From IMG/VR virus record IMGVR_UViG_3300033076_000638, positions 2,887 to 66,886 of that record: a stretch of DNA of 64,000 bases, one strand, 5' to 3'. This DNA is from a virus (lineage: Duplodnaviria > Caudoviricetes). Of the stretch, positions 20,693-49,953 are shown piece by piece (position 1 is the first letter of the stretch; each line of letters begins with the position of its first letter). A program made the translations under genes and the position numbers. The notes beneath the pieces were generated by a model. That model did not search any database. It saw only the letters and a program-made list of their open reading frames with translations, and was not told the origin of the DNA.

Positions 20693-23600
20693 ATGGCTAA
20701 TACAGTTTCAATTTTAAGTTATGCAAACACCTTTGGTGAATGGGTTGTTAACACAAACACTCTTGCAAAAGAGAACAACGACCTTGCTGCAAACAACTAT
20801 GTAAAATCAACAGGGACTTTGTTCTTAAACGACAACTCTCTTGGTCTACAAGTTGCTAACAACGCAATCATAGGTGGTCAACTACAATCTCAAGGTGTTG
20901 GTTCTTCTGCATACGTACAGAACAACATGAGAGTTGATGGTCAGGTTTATTTTACCAATACAACATTAGGTTTAACCAACTCAGGTCAAGCAAATATTGG
21001 TGGAGCATTACTTGCACTTGGTACTGGTACAGGTTTGACAGTTGCTAATACAGCAAACGTTGGTCGTAACCTGAATGTAACAGGTAACACAACAGTCATT
21101 GGTAATTCAACAGTACAAGGTGACTCACAATTATTTACCGTTAAAGCAACAGGTACAGTCAATGTTGCTAACAACCTATTAGTTACACAGAACGCATATA
21201 TTGATGCATCAGCATTTGCTGACCACTACTATGCAAACATTGATATGACTACACCACGTATTGTGGTTTCTGGTTCTGTTTATGGTGTAACTGCACGTGC
21301 CGATTTCGATATACTCTACTCAAACACAACAACATTAAGTAGTGCCTATATCAACACAATACAAGCAAATTCGTCCATCAATACACAAACGATGAACGCA
21401 AGAACATTGTATGCACAATCTGTTGCAACACCAAGTGCAAACGTAACTGGTTCAATTGATGCTAATAATGCATCGTTGTTTATTAACAGTATACAAACAA
21501 ACGGACAGTTGAGTGTTGGTGGTAACTTCGTTATTAATGGTGCCACAGTATACAACTCAAATGCATTTACAATCAATGCAGGTTCAGCAACAGCACAGTA
21601 CGGTTCTTTCATTGTAAACCGTGGTTCTGATGGTGCAAACGCAGAGTTGCGTTGGAACCAACCACTTGGTTACTGGGACATTAAGAATGTTACATCAAAC
21701 ACATTCTACCGTGTTGTTACAAATGAATTCATTAATGACACACTAACATCAACAAGTAACACGGATATAGCTTCAGCAAACGTTGCAAATACATTGAACA
21801 ATACTATTACTGCCGCAAATAATTTCTTGCAGGCAGCAGTAAGTTCAGCAGGATCATATGCCAATTCCGCATTTGAACAGGCCAATGGTGCATTTGCTGC
21901 AGCCAACAACGTGGCACCACAGATTGCACCTGCGTTTGGTCAAGCCAATGCAGCATTCTCTAGAGCAAATACTTCCTCAAATGCTTTCGTAGGTACAACA
22001 GGTACAGGTATCACACCAACAAACGGTGGCATATCATTTGCAAGTAATAACGGTGTGGTTATTTCCACTCCAAGTGGTGGAAACACAGCATTTATTAGCA
22101 CATCACAAGACCTAAGAACCTCTGCAACACCAACATTTGCAGGTCTAAGTCTATCAAATCCATTGGCAGTTACACAAGGTGGTACAGGTGGTTCATCTTC
22201 TACTGCTGCGTTAATTAACTTGTTGCCTGATGCATCATCCGCACCAGCAGGATATGTTCTTGCAACTGGCGGTGTTGGTAGTTACTACTGGACTGCTGGC
22301 GGTTCAGGTGGCGGCGGTGGTACACAACCTGGTACAAGAATTAATACAACACGTTCTTTCCCAACAGTTAATACTAACCAAACAATATTTACCACACCAA
22401 CATACACTCCAGGTGCAGGTCAATTACGTGTGTATATTGATGGTGTTCGTCAATATCCTTCAGACTATTCAGAAACCAATTCAACAACAGTTACATTGGG
22501 TTCAGTAATACCAACTGGTTCATCTTTGATGATTGAAGTTGATGGTTATAACACATATAACAATTGGGCAAACACAACAACGTTTACTGCACCACAAGGT
22601 TTAATACCTTCTTCAGCAAACACCGTTCAGTTGGCGATTGCAGATTTGGAAACTAGAAAAGCAACGTTGGCATCACCAACATTTACTGGATTGGTTTCAG
22701 TACCAACTGCACCAACAAGCACAAGTAATACAATCGCTGCATCAACAGCATATGTAACAAGTCGTTTGGGTGATGGTGGTACATATGCACACAACATCAC
22801 AGGTAATGCAGCAACAGCCAACTCAGCAGCTTCTGTGGCAGCAAGTGCAATTACTGGTCAATCAGGTATGTGGACAAGTGCAACACGTCCTGGTCCATAT
22901 AGATTGTATCGTAGAGACAACGACAGTAATTATTCCGTACAAACATATTGGACCGGCAATCGTTGGAGATTGTATGGTTATAATGGAGATAGTGAACATG
23001 CAGATACACATGTGGGTTATGCAGACTCCGCTGGTTCGGTCGCCTGGGGCAACGTAAGTGGTAGACCAACAGCAGTAAGTTCATTCACAAATGATTCTGG
23101 TTACCAAACATCTTCCGGTTCCGTTAACTATGCATCTAGTGCAGGTTCGGTTGCATGGAATAATGTGACTGGTAAACCAACCACTCTAGGTGGTTTATCT
23201 GATGATACACACATTTATGGCAACAATGGTATCCAATGGGGTATGGGTGCAGTTGCAGGATACACCTACACATTAAGTAGTGGTGCTGTTGATGATACAT
23301 CAACAACATTTAATGTACCTTCTAGTGGATGGTGGTCATTTGATAATGTAAATATATATTTTAGGGGAGAGAGATATTCATGTACAGCATGGGTAAACAC
23401 CACCGCATATGTTATAGGAGCCTTTGACGTTAATGTTGGTGGTTCATGGTATACTATTTCAACTCGTTACTGGGATTTCCAACAAGTAAATGCATTACCA
23501 AGCGCTAACGGAGTCAGAAAAGCTGTTGGAACAAGAGGTACATATTACGGAGCTGGCCTAGGAAAAGATAATATATTAGGTAGTTATAATAAACCTTATT

Positions 23601-23848
23601 ACCTATACGCAGGATCAAATATAAGATTGCGTATGATGTGGAGCACATCCGTTCCATATGAAAATGATTCATCTATAGCGGATATTGGAGCATTTGCTGA
23701 TACATATACTGGTGTGCCTAATTTAATTATAATGCCTAGTTCATATAATTACCAATGGAGAGCTTATCCAAGTCCAATAAACACTTCAGGAACATACTGG
23801 TTTGCAGGTGCCGGTGTATCGTTCGCAGCAACAAGAGTAGGAACTTAA
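20693..23848 (+). CDS. Tail fibre protein
   Basis: N-terminal NTFGEWVVNTN baseplate-attachment-like motif; beta-helical N/T/S-rich body; LAVTQGGTG and WxNVxG[RK]PT fibre motifs; aromatic-rich C-terminal tip. Confidence 0.8.
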   Translation: MANTVSILSYANTFGEWVVNTNTLAKENNDLAANNYVKSTGTLFLNDNSLGLQVANNAIIGGQLQSQGVGSSAYVQNNMRVDGQVYFTNTTLGLTNSGQANIGGALLALGTGTGLTVANTANVGRNLNVTGNTTVIGNSTVQGDSQLFTVKATGTVNVANNLLVTQNAYIDASAFADHYYANIDMTTPRIVVSGSVYGVTARADFDILYSNTTTLSSAYINTIQANSSINTQTMNARTLYAQSVATPSANVTGSIDANNASLFINSIQTNGQLSVGGNFVINGATVYNSNAFTINAGSATAQYGSFIVNRGSDGANAELRWNQPLGYWDIKNVTSNTFYRVVTNEFINDTLTSTSNTDIASANVANTLNNTITAANNFLQAAVSSAGSYANSAFEQANGAFAAANNVAPQIAPAFGQANAAFSRANTSSNAFVGTTGTGITPTNGGISFASNNGVVISTPSGGNTAFISTSQDLRTSATPTFAGLSLSNPLAVTQGGTGGSSSTAALINLLPDASSAPAGYVLATGGVGSYYWTAGGSGGGGGTQPGTRINTTRSFPTVNTNQTIFTTPTYTPGAGQLRVYIDGVRQYPSDYSETNSTTVTLGSVIPTGSSLMIEVDGYNTYNNWANTTTFTAPQGLIPSSANTVQLAIADLETRKATLASPTFTGLVSVPTAPTSTSNTIAASTAYVTSRLGDGGTYAHNITGNAATANSAASVAASAITGQSGMWTSATRPGPYRLYRRDNDSNYSVQTYWTGNRWRLYGYNGDSEHADTHVGYADSAGSVAWGNVSGRPTAVSSFTNDSGYQTSSGSVNYASSAGSVAWNNVTGKPTTLGGLSDDTHIYGNNGIQWGMGAVAGYTYTLSSGAVDDTSTTFNVPSSGWWSFDNVNIYFRGERYSCTAWVNTTAYVIGAFDVNVGGSWYTISTRYWDFQQVNALPSANGVRKAVGTRGTYYGAGLGKDNILGSYNKPYYLYAGSNIRLRMMWSTSVPYENDSSIADIGAFADTYTGVPNLIIMPSSYNYQWRAYPSPINTSGTYWFAGAGVSFAATRVGT

Positions 23849-23851
23849 AAT

Positions 23852-24109: not shown

Positions 24110-24874
24110 ATGACAACAAAAGTAAAACCATCCGTATTGGCAGACACCGCAGTAACCGCAGGTACATATGGTGGTTCCACACAACATTCCGTATTCACAG
24201 TTGATGCACAAGGTCGATTGATTTATGCTGGTAATGCAACACCAAGTATTGCAACCACACAACTGACTGGTACGATTTCTGCCACGCAAGTTGCAAACAA
24301 CCAAACTTATGGCATCAACATAAGTGGTAATGCCGCAACAGTAACCAACGGTGTAGTAACTTCAGGTTCATATTCCGATCCTTCTTGGTTGACCTTATCA
24401 AAATCAAAGGTTGGTTTGGGTAACGTAGATAATACTGCTGATGCAAACAAGAGTGTTAGTTATGCAACAACAGCAGGTAACGGCGGTGTAACAAGTATCA
24501 ACGGTAATACAGGTGCAGTTACATTAGATGCAGTTGGTTGGACAGTAACATACACTTCAGTATCCATTTCAAGTGGCGGAACCTGGAACGTTCCAGCAAA
24601 TTGTATTGGTGTATATGTTTGGTGTGAAGTTTATGGTGGTGTAAACAATGGTGGTTATGGCCGTGTTGCAGTCAAAAACTCAATCTCAACCACCATCGGA
24701 ACATTCTACATTAACGGAACAAATACAAACCACGGTCCTGATGGTGGTTCAGGTATGATGGACGGAGCAGGTTCTTTCATACCACTATCTTCAAGTGCAT
24801 CAAGTTTGTCCATGGACATTATTAACAATGGTGTTTCAGGCAGTTTCATTGTTCAGGCATACGTTACAAAATAA
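24110..24874 (+). CDS. Short tail-fibre-like protein
   Basis: AGTYGGSTQHSVFTVDAQGRL and KSKVGLGNVDNTADANKSV are common phage fibre motifs. Confidence 0.75.
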   Translation: MTTKVKPSVLADTAVTAGTYGGSTQHSVFTVDAQGRLIYAGNATPSIATTQLTGTISATQVANNQTYGINISGNAATVTNGVVTSGSYSDPSWLTLSKSKVGLGNVDNTADANKSVSYATTAGNGGVTSINGNTGAVTLDAVGWTVTYTSVSISSGGTWNVPANCIGVYVWCEVYGGVNNGGYGRVAVKNSISTTIGTFYINGTNTNHGPDGGSGMMDGAGSFIPLSSSASSLSMDIINNGVSGSFIVQAYVTK

Positions 24875-24926: not shown

Positions 24927-25280
24927 ATGGCTGCAGGATACCAAAATTTATACTTAGAACAAGGCGCCACATTTGATATTTCAATCGCATTAGATGATGT
25001 ATATGGCAACAACTATGACCTGACTGGTGCAACTGCCAAAAGTCAGATAAGGAAGTCATACTATTCCGCAAACGTAACTGCGGAATTTACAAGCACGATT
25101 GATGTTACTACTGGTACAATCGCACTATCACTTTCTTCTGCAAATACTGCAAACATTGCAGCAGGCCGTTATCTATATGACACAATAATTTCTATTCCTG
25201 GTGTACCTGGAACCGCAAACACAGTCATACGTGTACTAGAAGGTACAATGGACGTTTCACCTAGAGTAACAAGGTTCTAA
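24927..25280 (+). CDS. Conserved small beta-sandwich virion protein (LEQGATF type)
   Basis: NLYLEQGATF..YDLTGATAKSQIRKSY..IAAGRYLYD..RVLEG. Confidence 0.75.
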   Translation: MAAGYQNLYLEQGATFDISIALDDVYGNNYDLTGATAKSQIRKSYYSANVTAEFTSTIDVTTGTIALSLSSANTANIAAGRYLYDTIISIPGVPGTANTVIRVLEGTMDVSPRVTRF

Positions 25281-25281: not shown

Positions 25282-25503
25282 ATGGCAACAACACCTCCAT
25301 CAACAGTACGTGTTACGATTGGACAGAACAAACCTTCTGTCACATCACTAAGTTATGGTACAAGAACATTAAAGAGTGCGGCAGATTTGAATTTGTCTAA
25401 CGCACAAGATGGTTTCCCTATAATTTATCGTGCAAACACAAACAGTTTTGTGGTTGGTCCTGCTACTGCCGAAATTCTTACTATTGATAACGGATTATTT
25501 TAA
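25282..25503 (+). CDS. Small linker-like virion protein ending IDNGLF
   Basis: 73 aa; LKSAADLNLSNAQDGFPIIY motif; TAATG overlap with the next gene. Confidence 0.7.
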   Translation: MATTPPSTVRVTIGQNKPSVTSLSYGTRTLKSAADLNLSNAQDGFPIIYRANTNSFVVGPATAEILTIDNGLF

Positions 25504-27980
25504 TGGCAAATACCAGTACCATACAGATATTAAGGTCTTATGCAAATACTACACCGACATTCCTGTATGACGGTCAGCTAGCCTATTCTTTTGTAAACGA
25601 TACACTATACATTGGTAATACTGCACAGAGTGTTCGTGTAATTGGTGGTAATAATTACGTTGGTCTTACATTAGGCGCATATAACAAGGCTAATACTGCT
25701 GCAGCGGTAGCACAACTGGCATATGATACCGCTAATGCGGCAGGCACCAGTTCTACGGTCAACTCAGCATTTATTCAAGCAAACACAGCATTTAGACATG
25801 CGAATGCTGGTTATACACAAGCAAACACCGCAACAACATTAGCACAGGCAGCATTCAATGCAGCTAACAATGCTGCGGTTGCTCAGTCAGCATTCATTCA
25901 GGCGAATGCCGCATTTAATACCGCAAATAGTGTTGCTGCAAGTATCACAGAACTATCTAATATTGATGCGTATCAGAACACTACCATTTCTGCGATTAAC
26001 ACCTTTGCAGGTGCAGCCTTCAATGCTGCCAATGGTGCGATTGCAAATACTGGTGGTACAATCACAGGTTCATTGAATGTTTCAAGTAACCTAACTGTAT
26101 CCGGTAGTCTGACAGTTCTAGGTAATGTGTTTACTGTTTCTGCAACAGATGTATATGTAAACGATTCGTTAATTCATCTTGCAAACAACAATACAACAGA
26201 TGTTGTTGACATTGGTGTTATTGGTCAGTACAATAATGGTACAGCAAATGCTGCAACAGGTTTCTTCCGTGATCCTACATTAAAAGAATTCGTATTCTTC
26301 CAAGGTTACACAGCAAGAATATCATCCAATAACTTAATCAACATTGCACATCCAACGTTTGCTTATGCCAACGTATATGCAAATACATTTAAGGGCAATT
26401 TTGCTTCTAATATAGGATTTATAGGTGGTATCAACGTACAACCACATTTAACATTCTCTTTCACACAGGCCAACGCTTCTTTTGGTGTTGCTAACTCTGC
26501 AGCATTATATGCCAACGGTGCTTTTATAAAAGCCAATGCAGCATATGCACAGGCAAATACAGGTGTAACCAACGCACTTGCAGCTAGTACATATGCCAAT
26601 GCGGCGTTTGCTGCTGCAAATACCGCTTCTGCTGGTGGAACATTAGCCACTTCTGCCTTCATACAGGCCAATGCAGCATTTACGACAGCAAACAATAACG
26701 CAAACAATATTACTGTTGCAGGATCATATGCAAACTCAGCCTTCTTGCAAGCAAATAATGCATATGCAAAGGCAAATAACGTTGAGACATTAACAACTGT
26801 TGCATATGATACGGGTGCAGCTGCACAAGTAACTGCCAACAAGGCCTGGGACCATGCTAATGCTGCTTATGAGAAGGCAAATACTGGTACATCACCAACA
26901 ACGACTGACCAATACGCAAGAGACACAGCAAATGCAGCTTACTTAAAAGCCGATAATGCTCAAGCAAATGCTAGTGCTTCATTTGTTCAAGCGAATGCAG
27001 CATTTATTGTTGCAAATACTGTAACCTCGGCAGCACTATATGCCAACGGTGCCTTCATACAAGCAAATGGATCATTTATATTTGCAAATGCAACAGCATC
27101 CAACGTTGCGGTTGCTGGTGTGTATGCCAACGGTGCATTTATACAGGCGAATGCTGCTTATGGATACGCAAATACTATTGCAAACAATTCTATATCAGCC
27201 AGTCTATACGCCAACGGTGCATTTACACAAGCCAATGCAGCATATGCGAGTCAGAACGTAACAGGCACATATGCCAACTCAGCATACACAACTGCTAACT
27301 CTGCTGGTGTATATGCCAACGGTGCGTTCTTGAAGGCAAACGCAGCACAAGTACATGCACAGGCAGCTTTTAATACTGCAAACAATACAAGTTCAAGTAT
27401 TATTGAACTTACAAACATCGAAACATATCAGAATACCACAATAACCAATCTGAATACATATGCACAGGCAAGTTATGCAACTGCAAACTCTGGTGCATTG
27501 TATGCTAACGGTGCATTTACACAAGCCAATGCAGCATTTGTGGTTGCAAACAACGCTTTACCATTGTCTGGTGGTACAATTACAGGTACATTGACTGTAC
27601 AAGGTCAAACAACCTTACAGTCAAACACATATGCAACGCATATATTGCCTGCAGCCAACGTAACTTATGATTTGGGTTCACCAACAAGACGTTGGAGAAA
27701 ACTATGGATTGCTGGTAATACCATTGATTTGGGTGGCGCACAAATCTCCGCCGAAGGTGGTGCAGTTTCATTGACAAGTGATACTGGTGCATCGTTCTCT
27801 GTATCTGGTAACTCAGGTTCAAGTTTAGGTAACTTTGGTGCGATTTTGGCCAATTCACAGATTGCTTCAACCAACACCACATCAGGTACAATTGTTGTTG
27901 ATGGTGGTATTGGTGCAACAGGTAACGTAATTTTGGGTGGAATACTCCAGGCTAATTTGATTTCTGGTGGTACATTCTAA
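25503..27980 (+). CDS. Fibre protein with AN-x-A heptad stalk
   Basis: Mtd_N-like N-terminus (IQILRS..PTFLYDGQLAY); long ANxA[FY] repeats; ILPAANVTYDLGSPTRRWRKLW motif; ends ISGGTF. Confidence 0.8.
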   Translation: MANTSTIQILRSYANTTPTFLYDGQLAYSFVNDTLYIGNTAQSVRVIGGNNYVGLTLGAYNKANTAAAVAQLAYDTANAAGTSSTVNSAFIQANTAFRHANAGYTQANTATTLAQAAFNAANNAAVAQSAFIQANAAFNTANSVAASITELSNIDAYQNTTISAINTFAGAAFNAANGAIANTGGTITGSLNVSSNLTVSGSLTVLGNVFTVSATDVYVNDSLIHLANNNTTDVVDIGVIGQYNNGTANAATGFFRDPTLKEFVFFQGYTARISSNNLINIAHPTFAYANVYANTFKGNFASNIGFIGGINVQPHLTFSFTQANASFGVANSAALYANGAFIKANAAYAQANTGVTNALAASTYANAAFAAANTASAGGTLATSAFIQANAAFTTANNNANNITVAGSYANSAFLQANNAYAKANNVETLTTVAYDTGAAAQVTANKAWDHANAAYEKANTGTSPTTTDQYARDTANAAYLKADNAQANASASFVQANAAFIVANTVTSAALYANGAFIQANGSFIFANATASNVAVAGVYANGAFIQANAAYGYANTIANNSISASLYANGAFTQANAAYASQNVTGTYANSAYTTANSAGVYANGAFLKANAAQVHAQAAFNTANNTSSSIIELTNIETYQNTTITNLNTYAQASYATANSGALYANGAFTQANAAFVVANNALPLSGGTITGTLTVQGQTTLQSNTYATHILPAANVTYDLGSPTRRWRKLWIAGNTIDLGGAQISAEGGAVSLTSDTGASFSVSGNSGSSLGNFGAILANSQIASTNTTSGTIVVDGGIGATGNVILGGILQANLISGGTF

Positions 27981-28013
27981 ATAGAAGATAATAATTAAAA
28001 GAGTAAGGTAACA

Positions 28014-41146: not shown

Positions 41147-44100
41147 TGTACAATTCTGGTCGCAGAGGTAAAAGAGCAAATGATGGTTATGGTATAATTT
41201 CTCAGGCTGATAGGTTTAATCAGACAGAATATCCAATACCAATCGTTACCTCGTTTGCTGTCACAAATGGTTCATATGTGCCACTAGATGACACCGCAGC
41301 AAGTACTGCCGGTGGTCAAACAATTGTTGTCTATGGTTCTGGTTTTGCACCAGGAGCAACCGTAATGGTCGGTGGCAGTACAATTGGTGCAGTCACATAT
41401 CTTGACCAGGGTAGATTAACCTTTACTTCTCCGGCAAATTCTTCTGGTAGTTATACCATTATTGTTATCAATGCCAACGGTGGCACTGGTATTTTGGTAC
41501 CAGGTTTGGTATATTCTGGTGTTCCAACATGGTCAACATCAGCAGGTTCTGTTGGTTCTGTATATGAAACAACTTCCGTAAGTTCAACATTTGTGGCCAC
41601 TGGTGATGCACCAATGACATATAGTGTATTGTCTGGTAGTCTACCACCAGGAACATCATTGTCAACAACAGGCGTGTTATCTGGTTCTGCACCAGTAGAA
41701 TCTGGTTCAACAACATATTCATTTACCATCCGTGCAACTGATGGACAATTACAAGATACAGACCGTTCTTTCAGTTTGACCGTAAACACAGACGTTATTA
41801 CTTGGTCATCACCAACAAATAATCAAGTCATTTCTTCATACGAATATGCACCTATTTCTAACGTAACTGCATCAGCAACTTCTGCTGCTGGTTATAGTGT
41901 CGTGTATTCATCAAACACAACACCAACTGGTATATCATTAAATGCCACAACTGGTGTTATTTCTGGTACTGCAAACACAGTTGGTAATACATACACACGA
42001 TTGACTGCAACAGCAAACACAACAGGAAGAAGTGCAATACGTGATGTAGTATTCAATGTGAATCAAGACGTTGTTACATGGAGCACACCAACAGCAGACC
42101 AACAATATTCGTTGTCTGGTGGTTCAGCAATGTCACCAGTATCATTGAGTGCAACCAGTGCAGCGGGTTTTGGTGTTCAATATTCCGCAAACGCATTACC
42201 ATCTGGTGTGTCATTGAGTGGTTCTACAATCTCTGGTACTCCAGATACAGCGCAAACAGTATACACTTTGTTGACTGCAACAGCAAACACAACAAACAGA
42301 AGTGCAACAAGAACTATTAGTTGGGTTATTTCTCTTGGTGATATTTACTGGAAAAACACTTCACTTGCATTAAACGCAACACCAACATCTACTCCATTCA
42401 ATACGGATTTGAGCAACAATAATACAATGTTGACAGTTGTTGGTGATACAAAGCCAAGTAATTTTGATCCATACCAAGAAGGTTATTACAGTACTACTTT
42501 TTCAAGTAGCAATTATCTAACAGTAACAAGCCCAAGTATTGCCATGGGTACAGGTGATTTTACAATAGAATTTTGGATGTATTTCACTGGTACTGATGGT
42601 ACCAGATATGAATTAATAGATACCGGAACCAGCACGATTGTATTGTATCGTTATTCTAACAACGCTTTAAGTTATTTCTTTAACGGTGCCGATAGAATAT
42701 CATTAAGTGGATTCACGGCTGCTGCGTATGGCAATCGTTGGTTACATTTTGCAATCTCTCGTGTTAGTGGCAGCACTAAAATGTTTATCAATGGATCTCA
42801 GGTCGGATCAACATATACCGATACCAATTCATTCACTTTAACTAGCATGATAATTGGTTACAGTCCTGGTGCAGGATCATATTGGGCTGGTCAAGTAAGC
42901 AATTTCAGAATTTTGGCAGGCACTGGTTTATATTCAACCACATTTACACCACCAACAACTCCTTTGACGGCAGTTGCAAATACTGCATTGTTACTTTTCC
43001 AGTCAAATAGAATTATAGATAAATCTCCAAGAAATTATGCAGTTCCAGTGACTGGTACATTACCAATTTCACAATCACATCCATTCAACACTCCAACTAC
43101 TGTGGCATACAATACACAGTATAGTACATATTTTGATGGTACTGGTGATTATTTGTCTCTTTCCAGCAATACAGCTTTTGCATTGAGTGGTGATTATACT
43201 ATTGAGGCGTGGGTTTTTAGAACCGATTCTGGAACACAACGAGCAATTGTTGATTTACGTGGTGGTTCAAACTTAAACGTTCTATTCTATATGAATAGTT
43301 CAAATCAATTAGTTGCATTTAATTCCAGTTCTACTTGGATATCAAGCACAGGAACTATTCCATTAAATCAATGGACACACGTTGCTATTTGTAGGTCAGG
43401 CACATCAGTAAAATTGTTTATAAATGGTGTTAATGATGGTACAGCCACAAACTCAGACGCAAACGTTAGTGTTGGATCTCCATACATAGGAAGACAAAAT
43501 GGTTCAACAGGAAACGATTGGTTAGGAAACATTTCAAATGTTCGTATTGTTAAAGGCCAGGCATTATACACCGGTAACTTTACACCAGCAACATCATCGT
43601 TAACCATTTCAACAGTTGGTACTTCAGGTGCAAACGTTGCTGCATCAATTAGTGGTACAGTTTCTTTATTAACCTGTCAAAATTCTACAATAATTGATAA
43701 CTCAACCAATGCATTTACAATCACAAGCAATGGTGATGCACGTCCTGTTGCTATAAGTCCATTTACACAAACAACCGCAAACACAACAGTAACTACTTTG
43801 GGTTCAGCATACTTTGATGGTACTGGAGATTATTTATCCGTACCACACAATGCTGTTCATTGGTTGAGTAATTTGGATTTCACGATACAAGCCTGGTTCT
43901 ACACAACAAAATCGGGCGAACAATCAATATTAAATAAACAATGGCAAGGAACCAGTGCTGCGTATGCTAGTTATAATATTTACATAGAAGCCGGCAACAC
44001 GTTAAGATTCTTAGCTTCAACAAGCGGTGGCGCTTGGGAGATTGATTCGGGCAGCACCAGTACTGTAATAAAAACTAACACATGGTATCATGTTGCCGTA

Positions 44101-47100
44101 ACCCGTTCAGGTAGCACCTTTAGATTGTTTGTAAATGGTGTTGTTGATAAATCCGTAACAAATTCAGGTACACTATACAATCACCCCGATCCTATGATTA
44201 TCGGTGCGGCCGGTGCATTAACTGGTTATACTTCGGCATTTCAAGGTTATATCTCAGACATTCAACTAATTAGGGGCACAGCACTATATACATCCAACTT
44301 TGTACCACCACAAGCACCACTAACAGCAGTAGCAAACACACAGTTGTTAACATGCCAAACAAATGGTAACCTTAACAATAATCAATTTGTTGATTCATCA
44401 AGTTTTAATAACAATGTCACACGTTACGGAAATACCTCAGCAGGTACGTTTAGTCCATACAGTCCAAATGGATGGAGTACCTATTTTAATGGTAGTTCAG
44501 ATTATCAATATCTACCAACGAATGCTGCATTTGCAATCGGCACAGCCGACTTCACACTTGAAATGTGGGTAATGCCAACAGGTGCAAACTTGTCATGGAC
44601 CACATTGTTTGCTGGTGTAAACTATGGAGCACAAAGTGATTGGGGTTTATATGGTGGTGATGGTAATGGCAACCCATTATATCCAATGTTTATGTTTACC
44701 GGTTCATCAACACAAGGTAATGGAGCAACTCAAACACAAGGCACAGCATCATTAACTGGTTACACAAAGATGACTATCGGTCAATGGAACCATATTGCCG
44801 TAAGTAGAGTGAGTGGTACTGCAAGAATGTTCCTAAATGGTACACAAACAGGACCATCAGTTAATGCATCAACCTGGTCTTTGGCCAACACATTATCAAA
44901 AGGTATTGGTGGTGGATACAACGGTAACGGCAACACACTATTTACTGGTTACATTTCAAATATTCGTTTATTAAGTGGTACTGGTTTATATTCAGCCAAC
45001 TTTACACCACCAACAGCGCCATTGACAGCAATAGCAAATACTGTTGTATTGACATGCCAATCAAACAAATTTGAAGAAGTTAGTCGAAATAATTTTACAA
45101 TAACAAGTGGTGGTGCACCTAAAATACAAGCAATCAGTCCTTTTGGTGGTTCAAGTATTACAAATTATTACTCAACATATTTTAATACCGCAGCCAACTC
45201 ATTAACATACTCAAATAATGCGGCTGGTCCAACAGGCACAGAAGATTTTACATGGGAAGCATGGTGGTATTTCTTGACACAACCAGGTGGTTCTTTCCCA
45301 CGTGTGTTTGAATCCACAACAGCCAGTGCATTCCAAATCTATTTCAATGGTTCAACATTAACGATAGGACCAAACGGGGGTTCATCAGTATTGACATATG
45401 CATTAACATCGGTTAACCAATGGGTACACTTATGTGTAACTCGTTCCGGTTCAGCAATGAGATTGTTTGTTAATGGTGTATTACGTGCATATAGTGCGTC
45501 AGGTGGTACAAACTTTGCATCATCAACAAGTGGTTGGAGAGTTTTATCTGAAGGTGGTTCAGGTCCACACGGATTAATTTCCAACATGCGTGTTGTTAGA
45601 GGTTCAGTTGTTCCTGATTATGTAACAAGTTCAACAACAACTGGTACAACAATCTTTATTCCACCAACAAGTCCATTGACTGCGATTGCAAACACAGCAT
45701 TGTTGGCACACCAAAGTTCAACTCAAATTGATAGTAGTGGAAATGGTAGTACAATTACAACAAACGCAACCAACATTAAAATTTTACCAGTAAGTCCATT
45801 TACACCACCTACACCAACAACAGGTTTAACATATTCACCAACATTACATAGTGGTTCTATGTACCTTGATGGTACATCAGACTACTTAACTGTTGCATCA
45901 AACCCTGCATACACAACTTTACCGGCAAGTGGAAACTTTACAATCGAAGGTTGGTTCTATTTTACTGATTTGAGTATTGCACAACAATTACTTTTCACTC
46001 AACGAAATAGTGGTGCACAATATTGTCCTTATCTAATCTGGACAAGCACCTCTAGCATTCTATTATATGTAAGTTCAAACAATGGTTCGTGGGATATTGT
46101 CAATAGTGCTACATTAGCATCCGGTTTAGTGGCCAACCAATGGTATCATTTTGCATACACCAGAAACGGCAGCACATTTAGATTCTTTGTGAATGGTGTA
46201 CAAACATATACATTTACAAGTTCAGCAGCATTCACAAACACAAACACATACAACATAGGTATGTCTCCTGGTGAAACTAATACCGCTTTCAAAGGTTACA
46301 TTAGTGACCACAGATTTATTAATGGTGTTTCATTATATAATGCAAACTTTGTACCACCAACTGCACCAGCCACACCGGTTGTTTATTCTAACAACTCAAC
46401 TGCAATTGCAAATACTGCATACGCAGCAATTTTGGTGAGTGGTACAAGTGGTGGCATTATTGATGCACACGGTACCAACATCTTAGAAACTGTTGGTGAT
46501 ACTAAGCTTGCACCAGAATCTCCGTTTGAAGGTAGTTATTATAGTAATTACTTTGATGGTACTGGGGATTATTTAACTGTACCAAACAACTCTGGATTGT
46601 ATTTTACTGATGCTGGTAATCATACTTTTGAATGTTGGGTTAATGTTTCAAGTTTTGCTACAACACAAGGTATCATATGGAACCGTTCAGGATCAGCCGG
46701 ATGGAGTTTGGTTATTCAGGTTACCACTGGTTATCCATATTTTGTATTGTATACGCCTACAGCAGTAACAATTACAAGTTCAATCGCACTTACACTTAAT
46801 GCTTGGAATCATATTGCTTTGGTTAGGTCAAGTTCTGTTATTACAATGTATCTGAATGGGGTAAACGTAGGTACTGTTTCCAATGCTAGCGGCGTTAATG
46901 AAAATACGCAAGTAATTAATATTGGGTCTCAACCTAATGGTGGCAATCCATTATTAGGTTATATATCAAATGTTAGATTTGTTAAAGGTACAGCAGTTTA
47001 CACATCAAACTTTACACCTCCAACTGCACCCCTCACAGCAATATCAGGAACAAGTTTATTGACATGTCAATCAAATAAATTTGTTGATAATAGTTCTAAT

Positions 47101-47685
47101 GCATTTACTATAACCAAAAACGGTGATGCCGCAGTTAAAACATTTAACCCGTTCAAACTTAATACTGGTCAATCAATTTACTTTGATGGCACAGGTGACT
47201 CATTATTTCAAGCAGCAAGTCCAAATTATACATTTGGTACAGGTGATTTTACGATTGAATTTTGGATTAACTTCACAAGCACAACCAATAGACAAGATAT
47301 TCTATGGATTTCTACTGCGGGTGCTGCAACAGATAGACTTGGTATCTCATGGAACCTAACTGCTGGTAATTTGACATATTATATTTCACCGACTGTAGGT
47401 AATGCTATTAATGCAGCATGGACACCAACCACTGGACAATGGTACCATATTGCATTGTGTAGATCCTCAGGTAACACAAAATTGTTTATCAACGGTACTC
47501 AAAGTGGATCAACATATACAGATTCAAGAAATTATAATTCACAATATGCACTTTATGTCGGACAAGACAGTACAGGTCTAACGTCAATGTTTAACGGTTA
47601 TCTGAGAGACCTAAGAATCACCAGATATGCACGTTATACATCTAACAACCAGGTTAACTTGACATCCACTTTTGAAGTCAAATAA
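41146..47685 (+). CDS. Giant adhesin: IPT/TIG + 3 putative Ig (He_PIG-like) + 8 LamG/ConA-like domains
   Basis: GGQTIVVYGSGFAPGA (IPT/TIG); LPPGTSLSTTGVLSG-type Ig repeats; eight units, most with S.YFDGTGDYL..DFTIE.W..W.H.A..RSG....F.NG. Confidence 0.85.
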   Translation: MYNSGRRGKRANDGYGIISQADRFNQTEYPIPIVTSFAVTNGSYVPLDDTAASTAGGQTIVVYGSGFAPGATVMVGGSTIGAVTYLDQGRLTFTSPANSSGSYTIIVINANGGTGILVPGLVYSGVPTWSTSAGSVGSVYETTSVSSTFVATGDAPMTYSVLSGSLPPGTSLSTTGVLSGSAPVESGSTTYSFTIRATDGQLQDTDRSFSLTVNTDVITWSSPTNNQVISSYEYAPISNVTASATSAAGYSVVYSSNTTPTGISLNATTGVISGTANTVGNTYTRLTATANTTGRSAIRDVVFNVNQDVVTWSTPTADQQYSLSGGSAMSPVSLSATSAAGFGVQYSANALPSGVSLSGSTISGTPDTAQTVYTLLTATANTTNRSATRTISWVISLGDIYWKNTSLALNATPTSTPFNTDLSNNNTMLTVVGDTKPSNFDPYQEGYYSTTFSSSNYLTVTSPSIAMGTGDFTIEFWMYFTGTDGTRYELIDTGTSTIVLYRYSNNALSYFFNGADRISLSGFTAAAYGNRWLHFAISRVSGSTKMFINGSQVGSTYTDTNSFTLTSMIIGYSPGAGSYWAGQVSNFRILAGTGLYSTTFTPPTTPLTAVANTALLLFQSNRIIDKSPRNYAVPVTGTLPISQSHPFNTPTTVAYNTQYSTYFDGTGDYLSLSSNTAFALSGDYTIEAWVFRTDSGTQRAIVDLRGGSNLNVLFYMNSSNQLVAFNSSSTWISSTGTIPLNQWTHVAICRSGTSVKLFINGVNDGTATNSDANVSVGSPYIGRQNGSTGNDWLGNISNVRIVKGQALYTGNFTPATSSLTISTVGTSGANVAASISGTVSLLTCQNSTIIDNSTNAFTITSNGDARPVAISPFTQTTANTTVTTLGSAYFDGTGDYLSVPHNAVHWLSNLDFTIQAWFYTTKSGEQSILNKQWQGTSAAYASYNIYIEAGNTLRFLASTSGGAWEIDSGSTSTVIKTNTWYHVAVTRSGSTFRLFVNGVVDKSVTNSGTLYNHPDPMIIGAAGALTGYTSAFQGYISDIQLIRGTALYTSNFVPPQAPLTAVANTQLLTCQTNGNLNNNQFVDSSSFNNNVTRYGNTSAGTFSPYSPNGWSTYFNGSSDYQYLPTNAAFAIGTADFTLEMWVMPTGANLSWTTLFAGVNYGAQSDWGLYGGDGNGNPLYPMFMFTGSSTQGNGATQTQGTASLTGYTKMTIGQWNHIAVSRVSGTARMFLNGTQTGPSVNASTWSLANTLSKGIGGGYNGNGNTLFTGYISNIRLLSGTGLYSANFTPPTAPLTAIANTVVLTCQSNKFEEVSRNNFTITSGGAPKIQAISPFGGSSITNYYSTYFNTAANSLTYSNNAAGPTGTEDFTWEAWWYFLTQPGGSFPRVFESTTASAFQIYFNGSTLTIGPNGGSSVLTYALTSVNQWVHLCVTRSGSAMRLFVNGVLRAYSASGGTNFASSTSGWRVLSEGGSGPHGLISNMRVVRGSVVPDYVTSSTTTGTTIFIPPTSPLTAIANTALLAHQSSTQIDSSGNGSTITTNATNIKILPVSPFTPPTPTTGLTYSPTLHSGSMYLDGTSDYLTVASNPAYTTLPASGNFTIEGWFYFTDLSIAQQLLFTQRNSGAQYCPYLIWTSTSSILLYVSSNNGSWDIVNSATLASGLVANQWYHFAYTRNGSTFRFFVNGVQTYTFTSSAAFTNTNTYNIGMSPGETNTAFKGYISDHRFINGVSLYNANFVPPTAPATPVVYSNNSTAIANTAYAAILVSGTSGGIIDAHGTNILETVGDTKLAPESPFEGSYYSNYFDGTGDYLTVPNNSGLYFTDAGNHTFECWVNVSSFATTQGIIWNRSGSAGWSLVIQVTTGYPYFVLYTPTAVTITSSIALTLNAWNHIALVRSSSVITMYLNGVNVGTVSNASGVNENTQVINIGSQPNGGNPLLGYISNVRFVKGTAVYTSNFTPPTAPLTAISGTSLLTCQSNKFVDNSSNAFTITKNGDAAVKTFNPFKLNTGQSIYFDGTGDSLFQAASPNYTFGTGDFTIEFWINFTSTTNRQDILWISTAGAATDRLGISWNLTAGNLTYYISPTVGNAINAAWTPTTGQWYHIALCRSSGNTKLFINGTQSGSTYTDSRNYNSQYALYVGQDSTGLTSMFNGYLRDLRITRYARYTSNNQVNLTSTFEVK

Positions 47686-47688
47686 ATA
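47681..47688 (+). promoter_or_regulatory. Late promoter (AATAAATA) overlapping the lectin-gene stop codon
   Basis: TAA stop at 47683-85 forms the start of TAAATA. Confidence 0.5.
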
Positions 47689-47705
47689 GTTAAAAAAGAA
47701 GTAAT

Positions 47706-48014
47706 ATGACTACCAAATTACAACCGACAAACCTTGACCAGACATTAAATTATTCAGTAAACAAAATAATTGTTTCTGGGGTGGATGTACTCAATTATGC
47801 ACAGTCAGCATTTGCACAGGCAAATACTGGTGCAGTTGCAAATACTTTTGTGCAAGTTGGTTTCCCTATGTCGATGGGTATGATAACCGATGCAACAACG
47901 GGTGGCCTAGGTGGTGAACAACTTATCCAAATCTGGGACAACAGAACAACATTACCAACACACCTAATTTTTGCAAACAATACGATACAACTTGATGCAG
48001 GATATTTAACATAA
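47706..48014 (+). CDS. Miniature fibre/linker protein
   Basis: 102 aa; N-terminus MTTKLQPTNLDQTLNYS matches that of 34971; one AQSAFAQANT repeat; ends LDAGYLT. Confidence 0.7.
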   Translation: MTTKLQPTNLDQTLNYSVNKIIVSGVDVLNYAQSAFAQANTGAVANTFVQVGFPMSMGMITDATTGGLGGEQLIQIWDNRTTLPTHLIFANNTIQLDAGYLT

Positions 48015-48017
48015 ATA
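48010..48017 (+). promoter_or_regulatory. Late promoter (CATAAATA) overlapping a stop codon
   Basis: TAAATA core at 48012-17, upstream of ATG 48037. Confidence 0.5.
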
Positions 48018-48036
48018 CATCTATTAAGGAATAGAA

Positions 48037-48258
48037 ATGCCTACACAATTACAATTTAGAAGAGGTACTACAGCACAGACTGCAACTTTTACCGGCGCAA
48101 CGGCAGAAGTTACTGTTGACACAGATAAAAAGGTTGTTGTAGTGCATGACGGTACCACACCAGGTGGAACAGCATTGGCAACAGAAAACTTTGCCAAGGC
48201 CACGGCCAATACCGCAAATACCGCATATACAAACACGTTTTTATTAATGGGAGCTTAA
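48037..48258 (+). CDS. Stand-alone Mtd_N (major tropism determinant N-terminal)-like protein ending FLLMGA
   Basis: MPTQLQFRRGTTAQTATFTGATAEVTVDTDKKVVVVHDGTTPGG is the Mtd_N-type motif. Confidence 0.8.
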   Translation: MPTQLQFRRGTTAQTATFTGATAEVTVDTDKKVVVVHDGTTPGGTALATENFAKATANTANTAYTNTFLLMGA

Positions 48259-48261: not shown

Positions 48262-48591
48262 ATGCCATCGGTCTTAAAAATCTTGGGTCAATCTAACCCA
48301 GCACCAGCTACTGCTACTACATTGTATACAGTACCTGCAGCAAATAGTACAGTAATTTCCACAATCACAGTTGCAAATTTGGGTGCGGCAGGTGCTTCTT
48401 TTAGAATCGCTTGCAGACCAGCAGGTGCATCATTGGCAAACTCACACTATATTGCCTATGATACAGGTATGGCACCAAACGACACGGTTGGTTTAACATT
48501 GGGTATTACGTTGGCTGCAACTGACGTTATTACTGTTTCCGCAAATACAGGTAACGTTAACTTTACTGCATTCGGTACGGAGAATTACTAA
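48262..48591 (+). CDS. Small beta-sandwich protein (putative fibre-tip adaptor)
   Basis: 109 aa; KILGQSNP..TTLYTVPA..STITVAN; paralogue pattern with 40784. Confidence 0.75.
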   Translation: MPSVLKILGQSNPAPATATTLYTVPAANSTVISTITVANLGAAGASFRIACRPAGASLANSHYIAYDTGMAPNDTVGLTLGITLAATDVITVSANTGNVNFTAFGTENY

Positions 48592-49562
48592 TGGCTATTA
48601 AGAAATCCTCTAATATTGGATTTGCAAATAGGTCTATAATGTATGTTCCTCCTGTTGGAACTGGAGCTCCAGTTGAAGTTGGTTTAACGGCTACTGGTGG
48701 AAACGTAACAACATATTCAACCAGCACAGGTGGCACTTATAGAGTACACACATTTACTACTTCAGGCACATTCACCATTTCATCACTAGGTACAACATTT
48801 AGTAATGTTTCTATCTTAGTTGTTTCCGGTGGTGGCGGAGCACATTCAACAGCATCAGGTGGCGCTGGAGGTGAAATTAGATTTTATGGTAGAGCTGCCG
48901 ATGTTAAAGGATTTACACCACATGGAGCCGAAATCACTAATATGACAGCGAGTTCATATACTGTTACTGTTGGTGCGGGTTCAACTGCTACAACGGCGGC
49001 GATGACTGTTGCTAGTGCATCATCTATATCAGGCACAAATGTATCTATTACTGCTCCAGCCGCAACATTTGATGGTAGTGTAACGTCTACAGCTGGTTAC
49101 TATATTAGTGCCCTTGGCATTAATGCTGTACCTAAAAATACTTTAGGTTTCTTTGGCGGCGGATCATATAATGTATCACCATCCAACGTCATGGATGGTG
49201 CAAGTGGTGGAGGGCCAGGTTACGGCGGCGGCGGATCCGTGCATGGTGGCGGAAAAATATCATCGTGGGAGAACAGCACCGGCGGCGGAAATGGCGGGCC
49301 TGGTTGTTTAGTTAATATGGGATATGATCCATTAATACCCTTCTCGTTTGCTGGCGGAGGCGCCGGCGGCCAAAGAGGAGGATATGGGTACAACAACTCT
49401 AACTTCAAAGCATGGGCAATGCCTGGTTCCGGCGGAGATTCTGGTTATCCAGGAATCGCAAATAGTGGCGGCGGCGGCGGCGGTGGCTGGGGTGGAGGAG
49501 GTAGTGGAAATAACCAGAATGGCGGCAGCGGCATCGTAATCATTAAATATAGAATATATTGA
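48591..49562 (+). CDS. Glycine-rich adhesin-like protein
   Basis: YRVHTFTTSGTFT..ILVVSGGGG…GGSGIVIIKY frame of Gly-rich domains. Confidence 0.75.
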   Translation: MAIKKSSNIGFANRSIMYVPPVGTGAPVEVGLTATGGNVTTYSTSTGGTYRVHTFTTSGTFTISSLGTTFSNVSILVVSGGGGAHSTASGGAGGEIRFYGRAADVKGFTPHGAEITNMTASSYTVTVGAGSTATTAAMTVASASSISGTNVSITAPAATFDGSVTSTAGYYISALGINAVPKNTLGFFGGGSYNVSPSNVMDGASGGGPGYGGGGSVHGGGKISSWENSTGGGNGGPGCLVNMGYDPLIPFSFAGGGAGGQRGGYGYNNSNFKAWAMPGSGGDSGYPGIANSGGGGGGGWGGGGSGNNQNGGSGIVIIKYRIY

Positions 49563-49569
49563 GATAAAA

Positions 49570-49953
49570 ATGGCACATTTCGCACAAATAGATGAAAACA
49601 ATATAGTAACACAAGTTCTTGTTATTGAACAGGACGTAATTGACACTGGTCTTTTTGGAGATCCATCATCATTTATTCAAACAAGTTATAACACACAAGG
49701 TGGTGTTCACGTTTTGGGTGGAACACCACTAAGAAAAAACTTTGCTAGTATTGGATATACATACGATTCTGTAAGGGACGCTTTCATACCACCAAAACAA
49801 TATAATAGTTGGGTATTAAATGAAGATACTTGCCAATGGGAGGCACCAACACCAATGCCAAATGATGGTAAAGTTTATGTTTGGGATGAAGTAACTGTTT
49901 CTTGGAAAGACATGACTTCGGAAGAAGCAACATCAGTAGTAACAATACCTTAA
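49570..49953 (+). CDS. Conserved hypothetical protein (possible adhesin assembly chaperone)
   Basis: MAHFAQIDENNIV..QTSYN..RKNFASIGYTYD..DAFIPPK..SWVLNE..CQWEAP..YVWDE; chaperone role inferred from position. Confidence 0.7.
   Translation: MAHFAQIDENNIVTQVLVIEQDVIDTGLFGDPSSFIQTSYNTQGGVHVLGGTPLRKNFASIGYTYDSVRDAFIPPKQYNSWVLNEDTCQWEAPTPMPNDGKVYVWDEVTVSWKDMTSEEATSVVTIP

Follow-up and report, generated by a model that had tools for sequence, protein, structure and literature searches.

In the tail-fibre genes of an uncultured T4-like marine myophage, the motif at the end of a protein predicts which module will open the product of a gene further on. This holds in many loci and in proteins with otherwise unrelated bodies, and it is specific to subtypes of the motifs. 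We propose that the fibres are assembled from numerous individually encoded proteins, with a few end modules used again and again as connectors (joints B, C, D, and F), and we put the probability of this reading at roughly 60%.

The window that we analysed is a stretch of 64,000 nucleotides from a phage of the "Far-T4" type (Cr30/pelagimyophage-like), whose gp13 shares 50% identity with Cr30 gp13. The tail-fibre and adhesin genes lie between baseplate genes and the neck gene gp13, with DUF4815, sheath, and portal genes around them, and they encode the host-binding fibres as about 17 separate proteins (Table 1). Many gene junctions overlap or are just 0-40 nt apart, and fibre modules are shuffled between phages. 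The first-pass annotation of this DNA had placed genes and four motif pairs in the cluster, and we located all four pairs at those positions. It had also suggested looking for co-occurrence across related phage genomes, and there the pairs recur far beyond the window.

Table 1. Genes of the cluster, which are called in the text by the position of their first nucleotide in the window.
Gene product	Position	Strand	Features and evidence
1051-aa fibre protein	20693..23848	+	one F-socket-type beta-sandwich, aa 547-621 (nt 22331-22555); HMM 1.4e-26
254-aa protein, start MTTKVKP	24110..24874	+	regex match; weak tail-fibre PHROG matches only
117-aa LtfC-like beta-sandwich	24927..25280	+	Pfam PF23926, 30.5 bits (cut-off 27); phrog_3304, 4.9e-16
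73-aa connector, without known family	25282..25503	+	C-terminal plug IDNGLF (B1), nt 25483-25500
825-aa fibre	25503..27980	+	gp37-N-type N-terminus, nt 25503-25650; C-terminal plug ISGGTF (B1), nt 27960-27977
1349-aa fibre	28014..32063	+	gp37-N-type N-terminus; F socket aa 957-1026 (nt 30882-31091); compact end domain, last residues ...TGQMATYG
Adhesin, three Gly_rich_2 units, start MERISS	32066..34939	+	Pfam PF21722, 3.8e-11
942-aa fibre	34971..37799	+	F-plug N-terminus MSITQLQPFNLD; D socket aa 593-642 (nt 36747-36896); C1q-like tip aa 832-929
988-aa fibre	37813..40779	+	D-plug N-terminus aa 1-40; F socket aa 883-953 (nt 40459-40671); hydrophobic tail AIAMTIVFGG (nt 40747-40776)
120-aa jelly-roll adaptor, class I	40784..41146	+	HMM 1.6e-53
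2179-aa adhesin, 8 LamG/ConA-like domains and He_PIG Ig domains	41146..47685	+	Pfam PF13385, 1.7e-137 over 8 stretches
102-aa mini-fibre, proposed converter	47706..48014	+	F-plug N-terminus; B2 plug LDAGYLT (nt 47991-48011)
73-aa mini-fibre	48037..48258	+	canonical Mtd_N (Pfam PF18454, 57.8 bits; cut-off 26.3), short stalk, hydrophobic tail FLLMGA
109-aa jelly-roll adaptor, class II	48262..48591	+	AF2 model pLDDT 94, 8 strands
323-aa Gly_rich_2 adhesin	48591..49562	+	Pfam PF21722, 2.4e-8; start overlaps stop of adaptor gene 48262
127-aa protein	49570..49953	+	phrog_7759 (function unknown) sole match; no role in the scheme found

In pair B, a C-terminal peptide is followed by a gp37-type or Mtd_N cap. 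The pattern [IL][DS]xGx[FL] has five matches in the ~12,000 residues of the window, and three of these are at C-termini (IDNGLF of 25282, ISGGTF of 25503, and LDAGYL, plus a final T, of 47706). The N-termini encoded by the next genes align as one family, which bears out the claim that three such tails are each followed by an Mtd_N-like start; by combinatorics, the chance of three plugs meeting three sockets among 21 adjacent pairs is about 1 in 1330. The N-termini of 25503 and 28014 match that of T4 gp37 and do not reach the Pfam threshold for Mtd_N, and starts of this kind (type 1) have a weak link to canonical Mtd_N (hhalign E = 0.007, probability 5.6%).

After removal of duplicates, 87 sources gave 458 pairs of adjacent genes, in which the plug and an Mtd_N-like start were strongly associated (55/13/28/362, p = 2e-37; because the loci are phylogenetically related, our p-values overstate independence). 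The subtypes match as well: in 90 viral loci, tails that end in xGxF (B1) were followed 40 times by a type 1 start and 0 times by canonical Mtd_N, and DxGx[LIVY] tails (B2) were followed by canonical Mtd_N in 20 pairs and by no other start. This matching was repeated, with no crossovers, in 79 metagenome loci that were selected by a separate criterion (26/0 for xGxF and 6/0 for DxGxL). The upstream proteins that carry the two plug subtypes belong to at least 7 and at least 5 unrelated families, and the gaps at the conserved junctions vary from -1 to 55 nt. The docking code that was proposed in the first-pass annotation stands as a subtype-specific prediction of N-termini from motifs, but it is not one-to-one, because xGxF tails also precede 170-200 aa "knee-like" proteins without a gp37-type cap, and hydrophobic tails (pair C) also precede canonical Mtd_N mini-fibres (10 pairs) or end terminal fibres that adjoin gp13, where no adaptor gene is present.

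The last residues of T4 gp36, QDFGYY, form a D-x-G-x-aromatic peptide. The start of T4 gp37, which is homologous to those of 25503 and 28014, scores 44 bits against a profile made solely from type 1 starts. The distal rod of T4 is (gp36)3-(gp37)3 (10.64898/2026.03.06.709160). Similarly, Bbp9 of phage BPP-1 ends in ADLGGIA, which is of the same D-x-G-x-hydrophobic type as LDAGYLT of 47706, and the next gene encodes Mtd (PDB 1YU0), whose cap is of the canonical kind found in 48037. Judged by sequence, pair B is the gp36-to-gp37 joint of T4, and it also matches the Bbp9-Mtd gene pair. The xGxF peptide would bind the gp37-type cap with which the following protein begins (25282 to 25503 to 28014); in a variant, the DxGxL(T) peptide would bind the canonical Mtd_N cap (47706 to 48037). 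Unlike in T4, two or three such joints follow one another, in two co-varying subtypes, and they also occur on mini-fibres of 57-102 aa that have little beyond their two ends. Unlike Mtd, 48037 is a 73-aa stalk without the receptor-binding lectin domain, and its tail is followed by a jelly-roll adaptor and then an adhesin. In the papers that we consulted, no peptide-level motif is described for T4.

The root of the chain is probably 24927, as an anchor or collar. In relatives, its homologue is always directly 5' of the homologue of 25282, and the gene after that has a gp37-N-type start in every case; D69, G71, and F73 of 25282 are invariant in 6 homologues. In T5/DT57C, the collar protein LtfC holds LtfA through strand augmentation (PMC10713586). 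Gene product 24927 is above the Pfam threshold for LtfC. It probably grips 25282 in the same way, and 25282 could donate strands as the N-terminus of LtfA does. In contrast to T5/DT57C, the setting is a myovirus, and the strands would come from a stand-alone protein of 73 aa with a B1 plug at its end.

Pairs D and F are the proposed branch points. As claimed, the window holds pair D once: the module in 34971 is followed by the MALNFP..WKWNG start of the next gene, 37813. At the locus level, plug and socket occur together in 16 loci (16/6/4/143, odds ratio 95, p = 3e-14; cross controls, p = 0.008 and p = 0.11). In 17/17 cases the socket gene lies 5' of the plug gene, and one locus has three plug-and-socket fibres in series (L143). 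Module D (~45 aa) would accept fibres that start with (M)xFPxSP, giving an end-to-end joint if it is at the C-terminus and a side branch if it is internal (34971 to 37813).

For pair F, which had been described as occurring three times, one HMM finds the ~70-aa beta-sandwich in 20693, 28014, and 37813, and T[KQ][LV][KQ]P has just three matches in the window, each at residues 3-8 of an N-terminus. We ruled out 24110 as a third plug: it shares the pentapeptide alone with 34971 and 47706, and because the F-plug HMM misses it (and finds the other two), it is not in this family. The sandwich of 20693 is also present in homologues from three relatives (G001, G002, and G003). The socket profile matches the Kp7 tail adaptor (2e-9), a P-SCSP1u fibre, and CBA120 TSP4-N (1e-3). 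The top structural match of its AF2 model is TSP4-N and the next is the N-terminal domain of T7 gp17, at a modest Foldseek E of 3e-3, which suggests the docking fold of these two proteins. The support for pair F, which comes from few complete genomes, is weaker than for the other pairs. Plug and socket are associated across loci (p = 6e-5), and the socket is upstream in 11/12 cases. This T7 gp17-N/T4gp10-like sandwich within the shaft is a likely docking site for fibres that start with TK[LI]QPxN[LI]D, with proposed contacts from 28014 to 34971 and from 37813 to 47706. The mini-fibres with F plugs end in a hydrophobic tail, B1, or B2, and the next gene always accords with the type of C-terminus.

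We think it unlikely, although this is the strongest alternative, that the fibres are independent or purely linear, with joints B and C being real, the N-termini of pairs D and F attaching to the baseplate or another site on the virion, and the internal "sockets" being shaft knobs or relics of gene fusion. The T7 gp17 domain anchors the T7 fibre to the tail itself, and in G003 and L148 the D socket is at the extreme C-terminus with the plug gene directly next, as in a linear joint. Parts of the 34971 and 37813 types are within one chain in L133 and L120, so fusion and fission are common, and the F rule is broken by a socket without a plug (G004) and by a plug upstream of a socket (L107). However, the co-occurrence of D plug and socket holds even for internal sockets that are separated from the plug by further genes (G002 and L105), and TSP4-N, the best structural match for F, is itself a branching hub. 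Furthermore, a single fibre of G002 has two F sockets in tandem, and two F mini-fibres are encoded downstream of it, so that the numbers match after rearrangement; the 28014 homologue of G002 lacks the F socket, and G002 has no 34971-type fibre. In all, the rules are kept in four relatives with rearranged modules (G002, L105, L143, and L133).

Pair C links a hydrophobic tail, a jelly-roll adaptor, and an adhesin. Both of the occurrences that had been claimed are present: 37813 (AMTIVFGG) is followed by 40784 and the LamG protein 41146, and 48037 (FLLMGA) by 48262 and the Gly_rich_2 protein 48591. Every one of the ~22 + 22 distinct jelly-roll genes comes 0-10 nt after a gene whose product has a hydrophobic tail. 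The type of tail co-varies with the class of adaptor: VFGG is always upstream of the 40784 class, LLMGA or FLTSGM goes with the 48262 class, and a third and a fourth class have ILALEG and IVALG, respectively. The 48037 cassette (Mtd_N, stalk, and hydrophobic tail) recurs in three loci (L086, L089, and L098). The tail would meet a small, probably oligomeric adaptor that bears the adhesin, giving a three-part tip at the ends of 37813 and 48037, and the adaptor would be the adhesin's detachable attachment domain. A fibre end whose glycine-rich adhesin has its own gene and begins with an attachment module recalls the gp37 tip and gp38 adhesin (attachment domain and polyglycine sandwich) of T2 and S16; here the attachment module is a jelly roll, and often a separate gene.

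It seems improbable that the jelly rolls of 109-120 aa, and possibly also the mini-fibres, instead help fibre assembly as chaperones like Tfa or T4 gp38, acting on the C-terminus of the preceding fibre rather than serving as structural adaptors in the virion. Tail-fibre assembly genes typically come right behind a fibre gene, the annotations of phrog_3304 and phrog_33642 include "assembly", and, as mentioned above, some fibres have the same tails without an adjoining adaptor gene. Yet the jelly roll is also found as the fused N-terminal domain of Gly_rich_2 (as in P0003) and RCC1-repeat adhesins, the stop of a jelly-roll gene overlaps the start of the adhesin gene, and the closest structures are trimeric cement and turret proteins of virions (for 48262, the KHP40 trimeric cement protein at Z 10.2, although the jelly-roll fold is generic). 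The shuffling and tight spacing of modules would also suit conserved termini that mark module borders as linkers for recombination or as signals for translational coupling, with no protein-protein role, but this is very improbable given amino-acid-level conservation across unrelated bodies and variable gaps, subtype co-variation that spans two genes, and the known physical joining of T4 gp36 and gp37.

A fifth type of junction, in which a protein ending in ...GQxxxYG is followed by an M.R[IY]SS start, would join 28014 to 32066 and was seen again in G003 and L105 with different parent proteins.

Serial fibre joints in gene order are classical in T4, and the Klebsiella phages KP32, K11, and KP34 have a T4gp10-like branching domain and a conserved N-terminal docking peptide. 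The statement that no such code had been described goes too far: experiments on Klebsiella podophages have shown a conserved peptide docking onto a branching domain (PMC6872550, PMC13352976). These anchor-branch proteins, with CBA120 TSP4-N (the closest match to our F-socket model) and G7C gp66, share with our phage the concept of a modular docking code and the pairing of a short conserved peptide at the N-terminus of one fibre with a small beta-sandwich of another. In our phage, by contrast, the predicted sockets lie far inside long shafts or close to their ends, not directly behind the virion anchor; the plugs have an unrelated sequence; and the phage is a T4-like myovirus.

From the paired modules we infer physical contacts and their stoichiometries. 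A branched tree, whose exact form is likewise our reading of these pairs, is plausible, and the order of the genes is consistent with it, as the first-pass annotation had held. The genes would stand in assembly order, parent first and child after. As in the long tail fibre of T4 (gp34-gp35-gp36-gp37), where separate fibre proteins are also encoded in assembly order, end motifs that predict the start of the next gene would probably let the parts join in the order of their genes.

The fibre region of the window encodes the tail fibres and adhesins of an uncultured marine myophage of the T4-like kind, because it is preceded on its 5' side by a DUF4815 structural protein (2083 aa) and followed on its 3' side by the neck proteins gp13 and gp14, and because this gp13 is akin to those of T4-like phages: it is 44-50% identical to gp13 of Caulobacter phage Cr30, Stenotrophomonas phage DLP_6, Pelagibacter phages Mosig and HTVC008M, and cyanophage P-TIM40. 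The 64-kb window makes up nearly the whole of a 66.9-kb viral contig. All of its large ORFs lie on the plus strand, and those beyond gp13 and gp14 are, by gene order, presumably the sheath, tube, portal and capsid genes. A DNA search with the window found no near match among cultured phages, and neither a near-DNA search nor tblastn found anything in cultured phages for 25282, one of the fibre-region proteins. (Proteins are named by the start positions of their genes in the window.) Three small proteins in or at the edge of the cluster have no place in the scheme described here: one of 81 aa that is conserved in the relative G002, one of 127 aa that belongs to phrog_7759, and one of 125 aa with a weak similarity to cupins.

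The first-pass annotation proposed that short motifs in these proteins act as plugs and sockets that join one protein to a later one. In pair B, a C-terminal [IL][DS]xGx[FL] plug (divided below into xGxF, B1, and DxGxL, B2) is followed by a gene with an Mtd_N-like start; in pair C, a hydrophobic C-terminal tail is followed by a small beta-sandwich protein and then an adhesin; in pair D, a TAP..DQW module (the socket) is matched by a MALNFP N-terminus (the plug); and in pair F, a beta-sandwich socket is matched by a T[KQ][LV][KQ]P N-terminus. We took relatives of 25282 from IMG/VR (among them the complete 176-kb genomes G001 and G002, plus three fragments), a further 80 loci with canonical Mtd_N (Pfam) as the sole criterion, and a replicate set of 79 metagenome loci with another query as the criterion. 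Co-occurrence across genomes, one of the checks that the first-pass annotation had called for, was found for pairs B, D and F, with statistics that are descriptive only because all of the loci share ancestry: a plug [DSNK]xGx[FLVIM] at the C-terminus against an Mtd_N-like next start gave counts of 55/13/28/362 among 458 deduplicated adjacent gene pairs (p = 2e-37), the D plug against the D socket gave 16/6/4/143 (HMMs, locus level; p = 3e-14, odds ratio 95), and the F plug against the F socket gave 11/12/15/131 (locus level; p = 6e-5). The cross controls were far weaker (F plug against D socket, p = 0.008; D plug against F socket, p = 0.11). In G001 and in locus L107, several RCC1-repeat proteins replace the distal cassette, and the fibre genes are separated from gp13 by a gene block of non-structural look, with N-termini that resemble methyltransferases, kinases or sulfotransferases.

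Among the roughly 12,000 residues of the window, [IL][DS]xGx[FL] has five occurrences, three of them C-terminal (IDNGLF in 25282, ISGGTF in 25503, and in 47706 with an extra T). The first ~45 residues of all three of the next genes align as one family. Only 48037, which follows 47706, is canonical Mtd_N (PF18454, 57.8 bits versus a gathering threshold of 26.3); 25503 has no Pfam match at E <= 1, and hhalign of the other type of start (type 1) against canonical Mtd_N gave E = 0.007 with a probability of 5.6%. Because homology between the two types is not established, we class 25503 and 28014 (the proteins that follow 25282 and 25503) as gp37-N-type rather than as Mtd_N. The type of start goes with the type of plug. 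In the viral loci, xGxF at the C-terminus was followed by a type 1 start (IQLK/IQILRS) 40 times and by canonical Mtd_N 0 times. For DxGx[LIVY] within two residues of the C-terminus (x0-2), all 20 of the next starts were canonical Mtd_N. This split was repeated in the 79 metagenome loci (26/0 for xGxF and 6/0 for DxGx). Since the upstream proteins belong to many unrelated families (at least 7 for xGxF and at least 5 for DxGx), it is the tail and not the body of the protein that predicts the start of the next gene.

The exceptions to pair B form a single class, in which an xGxF tail precedes a "knee-like" protein of 170-200 aa. The knee-like proteins start with MDVRLQNAY.EVLL or MSEKYVNHYIELL, end in GGTF, and are followed by a gp37-type start. 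Their N-terminus would be another type of acceptor to which the xGxF plug fits. T4-like cyanophages have a chain of proteins of 84, 550, 187 and 383 aa and an Mtd_N fibre, as in L025-L040. Among 819 proteins from 87 sources, none had a B plug fused directly ahead of Mtd_N. In the cultured cyanophage S-CAM3, the gene ahead of the Mtd_N protein ends in TYGWII, which is plug-like only loosely. A mini-gene and the gene after it might be one gene that is split or frameshifted, but an ATG and a stop are present at every junction and are kept in relatives that are 43-93% identical, so we rejected this explanation.

It is classical that the serial fibres of T4 are encoded in the order of assembly, and the gp36-gp37 joint has been known for decades. 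The C-terminus of T4 gp36 is QDFGYY, which is a D/S-x-G-x-aromatic peptide like those of 25282 and 25503. Furthermore, residues 6-51 of T4 gp37 score 44.1 bits against a profile that was built from 12 N-termini of type 1 and includes no canonical Mtd_N member, so gp37 begins with the same type of domain as the proteins downstream of B1 plugs. In T4, these two proteins make up the distal rod, (gp36)3-(gp37)3 (10.64898/2026.03.06.709160; PMC5537660). Judged by sequence, pair B is a generalised form of the T4 gp36-gp37 joint. The BPP-1 fibre protein Bbp9 has the C-terminus ADLGGIA, and Mtd is the next gene. A sequence search of the PDB with the cap found only Mtd and no solved joint of the pair B type.

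The D module TAP..DQW..W.ELG lies in the C1q fibre 34971, and the gene directly next encodes 37813, which begins MALNFP..WKWNG. Pair D had been seen just once, in the window, and it recurs strongly across the loci. In 17 of 17 cases the socket is encoded upstream of the plug. The protein that bears the socket varies: the C1q fibre (window), a homologue of 28014 (G002), a canonical Mtd_N fibre (G003) and a 159-aa mini-fibre (L105). G003 and L148 have the socket as the extreme C-terminus, with the plug gene directly next. L143 encodes three fibres in series that all start with a D plug, two of them with their own D socket, which suggests a daisy chain of D joints alone. Where a parent has both an internal socket and a hydrophobic tail (G002 and L105), the adaptor and adhesin come first and the D-plug gene after, which is the gene order that had been proposed. 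Homotypic docking, with the D plug being the same motif as the D socket, was dropped because hhalign of plug against socket gave E = 0.27. Pfam searches at E <= 1 found nothing for the D plug, the D socket, the F plug, 25282, or 24110 (a carrier of the F pentapeptide).

For pair C, the window has two hydrophobic tails (IVFGG and LLMGA), each followed by a protein of 109-120 aa (40784 and 48262) and then an adhesin, as claimed. An HMM for the small protein matched 33 proteins of the viral set and 43 of the metagenome set, and every distinct member sits 0-10 nt after a gene with a hydrophobic tail. The class of the small protein tracks the type of tail: VFGG goes with the 40784 class, LLMGA or FLTSGM with the 48262 class, and ILALEG and IVALG with two further classes. 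The model of 48262 is an 8-stranded jelly roll (pLDDT 94). Its nearest structures are the trimeric cement protein of phage KHP40 (Z = 10.2) and a virus turret protein, and the fold class is generic; the fold searches returned generic viral jelly-roll, nucleoplasmin and cement-protein matches and no known fibre adaptor. Because the same domain is also found as the fused N-terminus of Gly_rich_2 adhesins (P0003 and P0007) and of RCC1-repeat adhesins (P0010), the best reading is that the jelly-roll protein is the adhesin's attachment domain in detachable form, and pair C would then be a three-part tip joint of tail, adaptor and adhesin. (Within the window, Gly_rich_2, PF21722, matches 32027/32066 at 43.9 bits and 48591 at 34.7 bits, versus a gathering threshold of 24.3.) P0001 (216 aa) is a tandem duplication of the adaptor, and in P0016 (380 aa) a fibre segment with a plug-like end, ...SDWGSIL, is fused straight to the jelly roll.

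The converse of pair C fails: similar tails also precede Mtd_N mini-fibres (AVALG with a 134-aa protein and FMMMGA with a 67-aa protein) and terminate end fibres that adjoin gp13. In seven cyanophage-like contigs (L035, L042, L051, L052, L056, L058 and L063), the last Mtd_N fibre ends in ...AFAIALG and gp13 is directly next. Because there is no jelly-roll gene near this fibre in any of the seven, its tail may have another partner or role.

For pair F, a single HMM finds the ~70-aa beta-sandwich in 20693, 28014 and 37813, as described. The pentapeptide T[KQ][LV][KQ]P does occur three times, always within residues 3-8, but the assignment of 24110 as an F plug did not hold up, as it has the pentapeptide alone and does not match the F-plug HMM. 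The socket profile matches the Kp7 tail-complex protein 7y22_e (2e-9), the P-SCSP1u fibre gp28 (2e-4), and TSP4-N of CBA120 (7rfo, 1e-3). The top Foldseek match of the AF2 model (pLDDT 81) is also TSP4-N (7rfv; TMq 0.63, rmsd 1.8 Å over 67 columns, E = 3e-3); behind it come the N-termini of several podovirus fibres, among them that of T7 gp17, which fits about as well as TSP4-N. TSP4-N and the podovirus fibre N-terminal domains are known docking modules. The F socket is upstream of the F plug in 11 of 12 cases. Leaving out the 20693-family socket, which is present in all four genomes, the counts of F sockets and F plugs are 2/2 in the window, G001 and G002, and 0/0 in G003. The most telling genome is G002, where two F sockets lie in tandem in the 37813 homologue and two F mini-fibres come after it, while the 28014 homologue lacks the F socket and there is no 34971-type fibre. 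The rule is broken in G004 and L107, and overall the support for pair F from these sequences is moderate.

In Klebsiella podophages, earlier work defined branching domains to which a conserved N-terminal peptide binds, and validated them by experiment (PMC6872550; PMC13352976). Pair F is like this anchor-branch system in that a conserved N-terminal peptide on a secondary fibre co-occurs with a domain. In contrast, the branching domain of the anchor-branch system comes straight after the virion anchor, while the F sockets of 28014 and 37813 occupy residues 957-1026 of 1349 and 883-953 of 988.

The mini-fibres that start with an F plug are 56-164 aa long and have varied ends: a hydrophobic tail in G002, L105 and L108, B2 in the window and L060, and B1 in L107. 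After every F mini-fibre, the next gene agrees with the type of its C-terminus. In L133 and L120, a 34971-type F-plug N-terminus, a 37813-type F socket and a VFGG tail are joined in one polypeptide (1388-1835 aa) without the C1q tip. A fifth junction was found in three different parent proteins, in which a compact fibre end domain, ...GQxxxYG$, precedes a Gly-rich adhesin that starts with M.R[IY]SS. Because this start is at 32066 in the window, the junction argues that the Gly-rich gene truly begins at 32066, rather than at 32027 (the start of the longer ORF).

At the proposed root, 24927 passes the LtfC-like Pfam (PF23926) with 30.5 bits versus a gathering threshold of 27, and genes of this type are always directly upstream of the 73-aa connector (25282 in the window). 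LtfC of DT57C is a collar that grips the N-termini of LtfA via beta-strand augmentation (PMC10713586). By analogy, it would be a mechanistic precedent for the root and for the docking of peptides on sandwiches generally.

Coordinates of the features in the window and in related loci
Source	Position	Feature
Window	20693-49953	tail-fibre and adhesin cluster
Window	23852-24097 and 49570-50353	three small proteins without a place in the scheme
Window, protein 34971	aa 593-642	D module (socket)
Window	32027-32066	fifth junction
G003 (L016-L018)	32337 to 36903	fifth junction
L105	11970 to 12745	fifth junction
G001 (L010-L012)	32205-41086	RCC1-repeat proteins in place of distal cassette
L107	908-9538	RCC1-repeat proteins in place of distal cassette
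L143	9107-18121	three fibres with D-plug starts
L133	9992-15499	fused F-plug, F-socket and VFGG polypeptide
L120	4340-8506	fused F-plug, F-socket and VFGG polypeptide
G003	14629	knee-like protein
G004	2930	knee-like protein
L025-L067, L125-L146		knee-like protein

The branched tree that we infer runs from 24927 through 25282 and 25503 to 28014, which branches to 32066 and 34971; 34971 leads to 37813, which branches to 40784 with the LamG adhesin 41146 and to 47706, 48037, 48262 and 48591. This tree agrees with every junction rule. We give a probability of about 0.4 to the joint claim that uncultured T4-like aquatic phages share a readable grammar with five or more orthogonal types of junction, two of them branching, with mini-fibres as converters. 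The types would be B1 (xGxF), B2 (DxGxL), the hydrophobic tail with its jelly-roll adaptor (in several co-varying classes), D, F, and GQxxxYG followed by M.R[IY]SS. Side branches would arise from two of the junction types, and mini-fibres of 57-160 aa would be pure adaptors that turn one junction type into another. We found no description in the literature of these motif pairs, of the jelly-roll adaptor, or of the D module.

Marine T4-like phages are very abundant, and most of them are uncultured and have fibre genes without annotation. The scheme gives names and testable roles to several widespread families that lack annotation (the 73-aa connector, the jelly-roll adaptor, the D module and the F plug), and it singles out the last residues of T4 gp36 as an easily testable peptide. 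If the grammar is true, gene order could directly reveal how a hyper-branched tree that bears many adhesins is connected. If the joints are physical, they would account for the swapping of adhesins as cassettes and for the many large LamG, Gly-rich, C1q and RCC1 proteins in such phages, and the architecture of the host-recognition organelle would be predictable from sequence alone.
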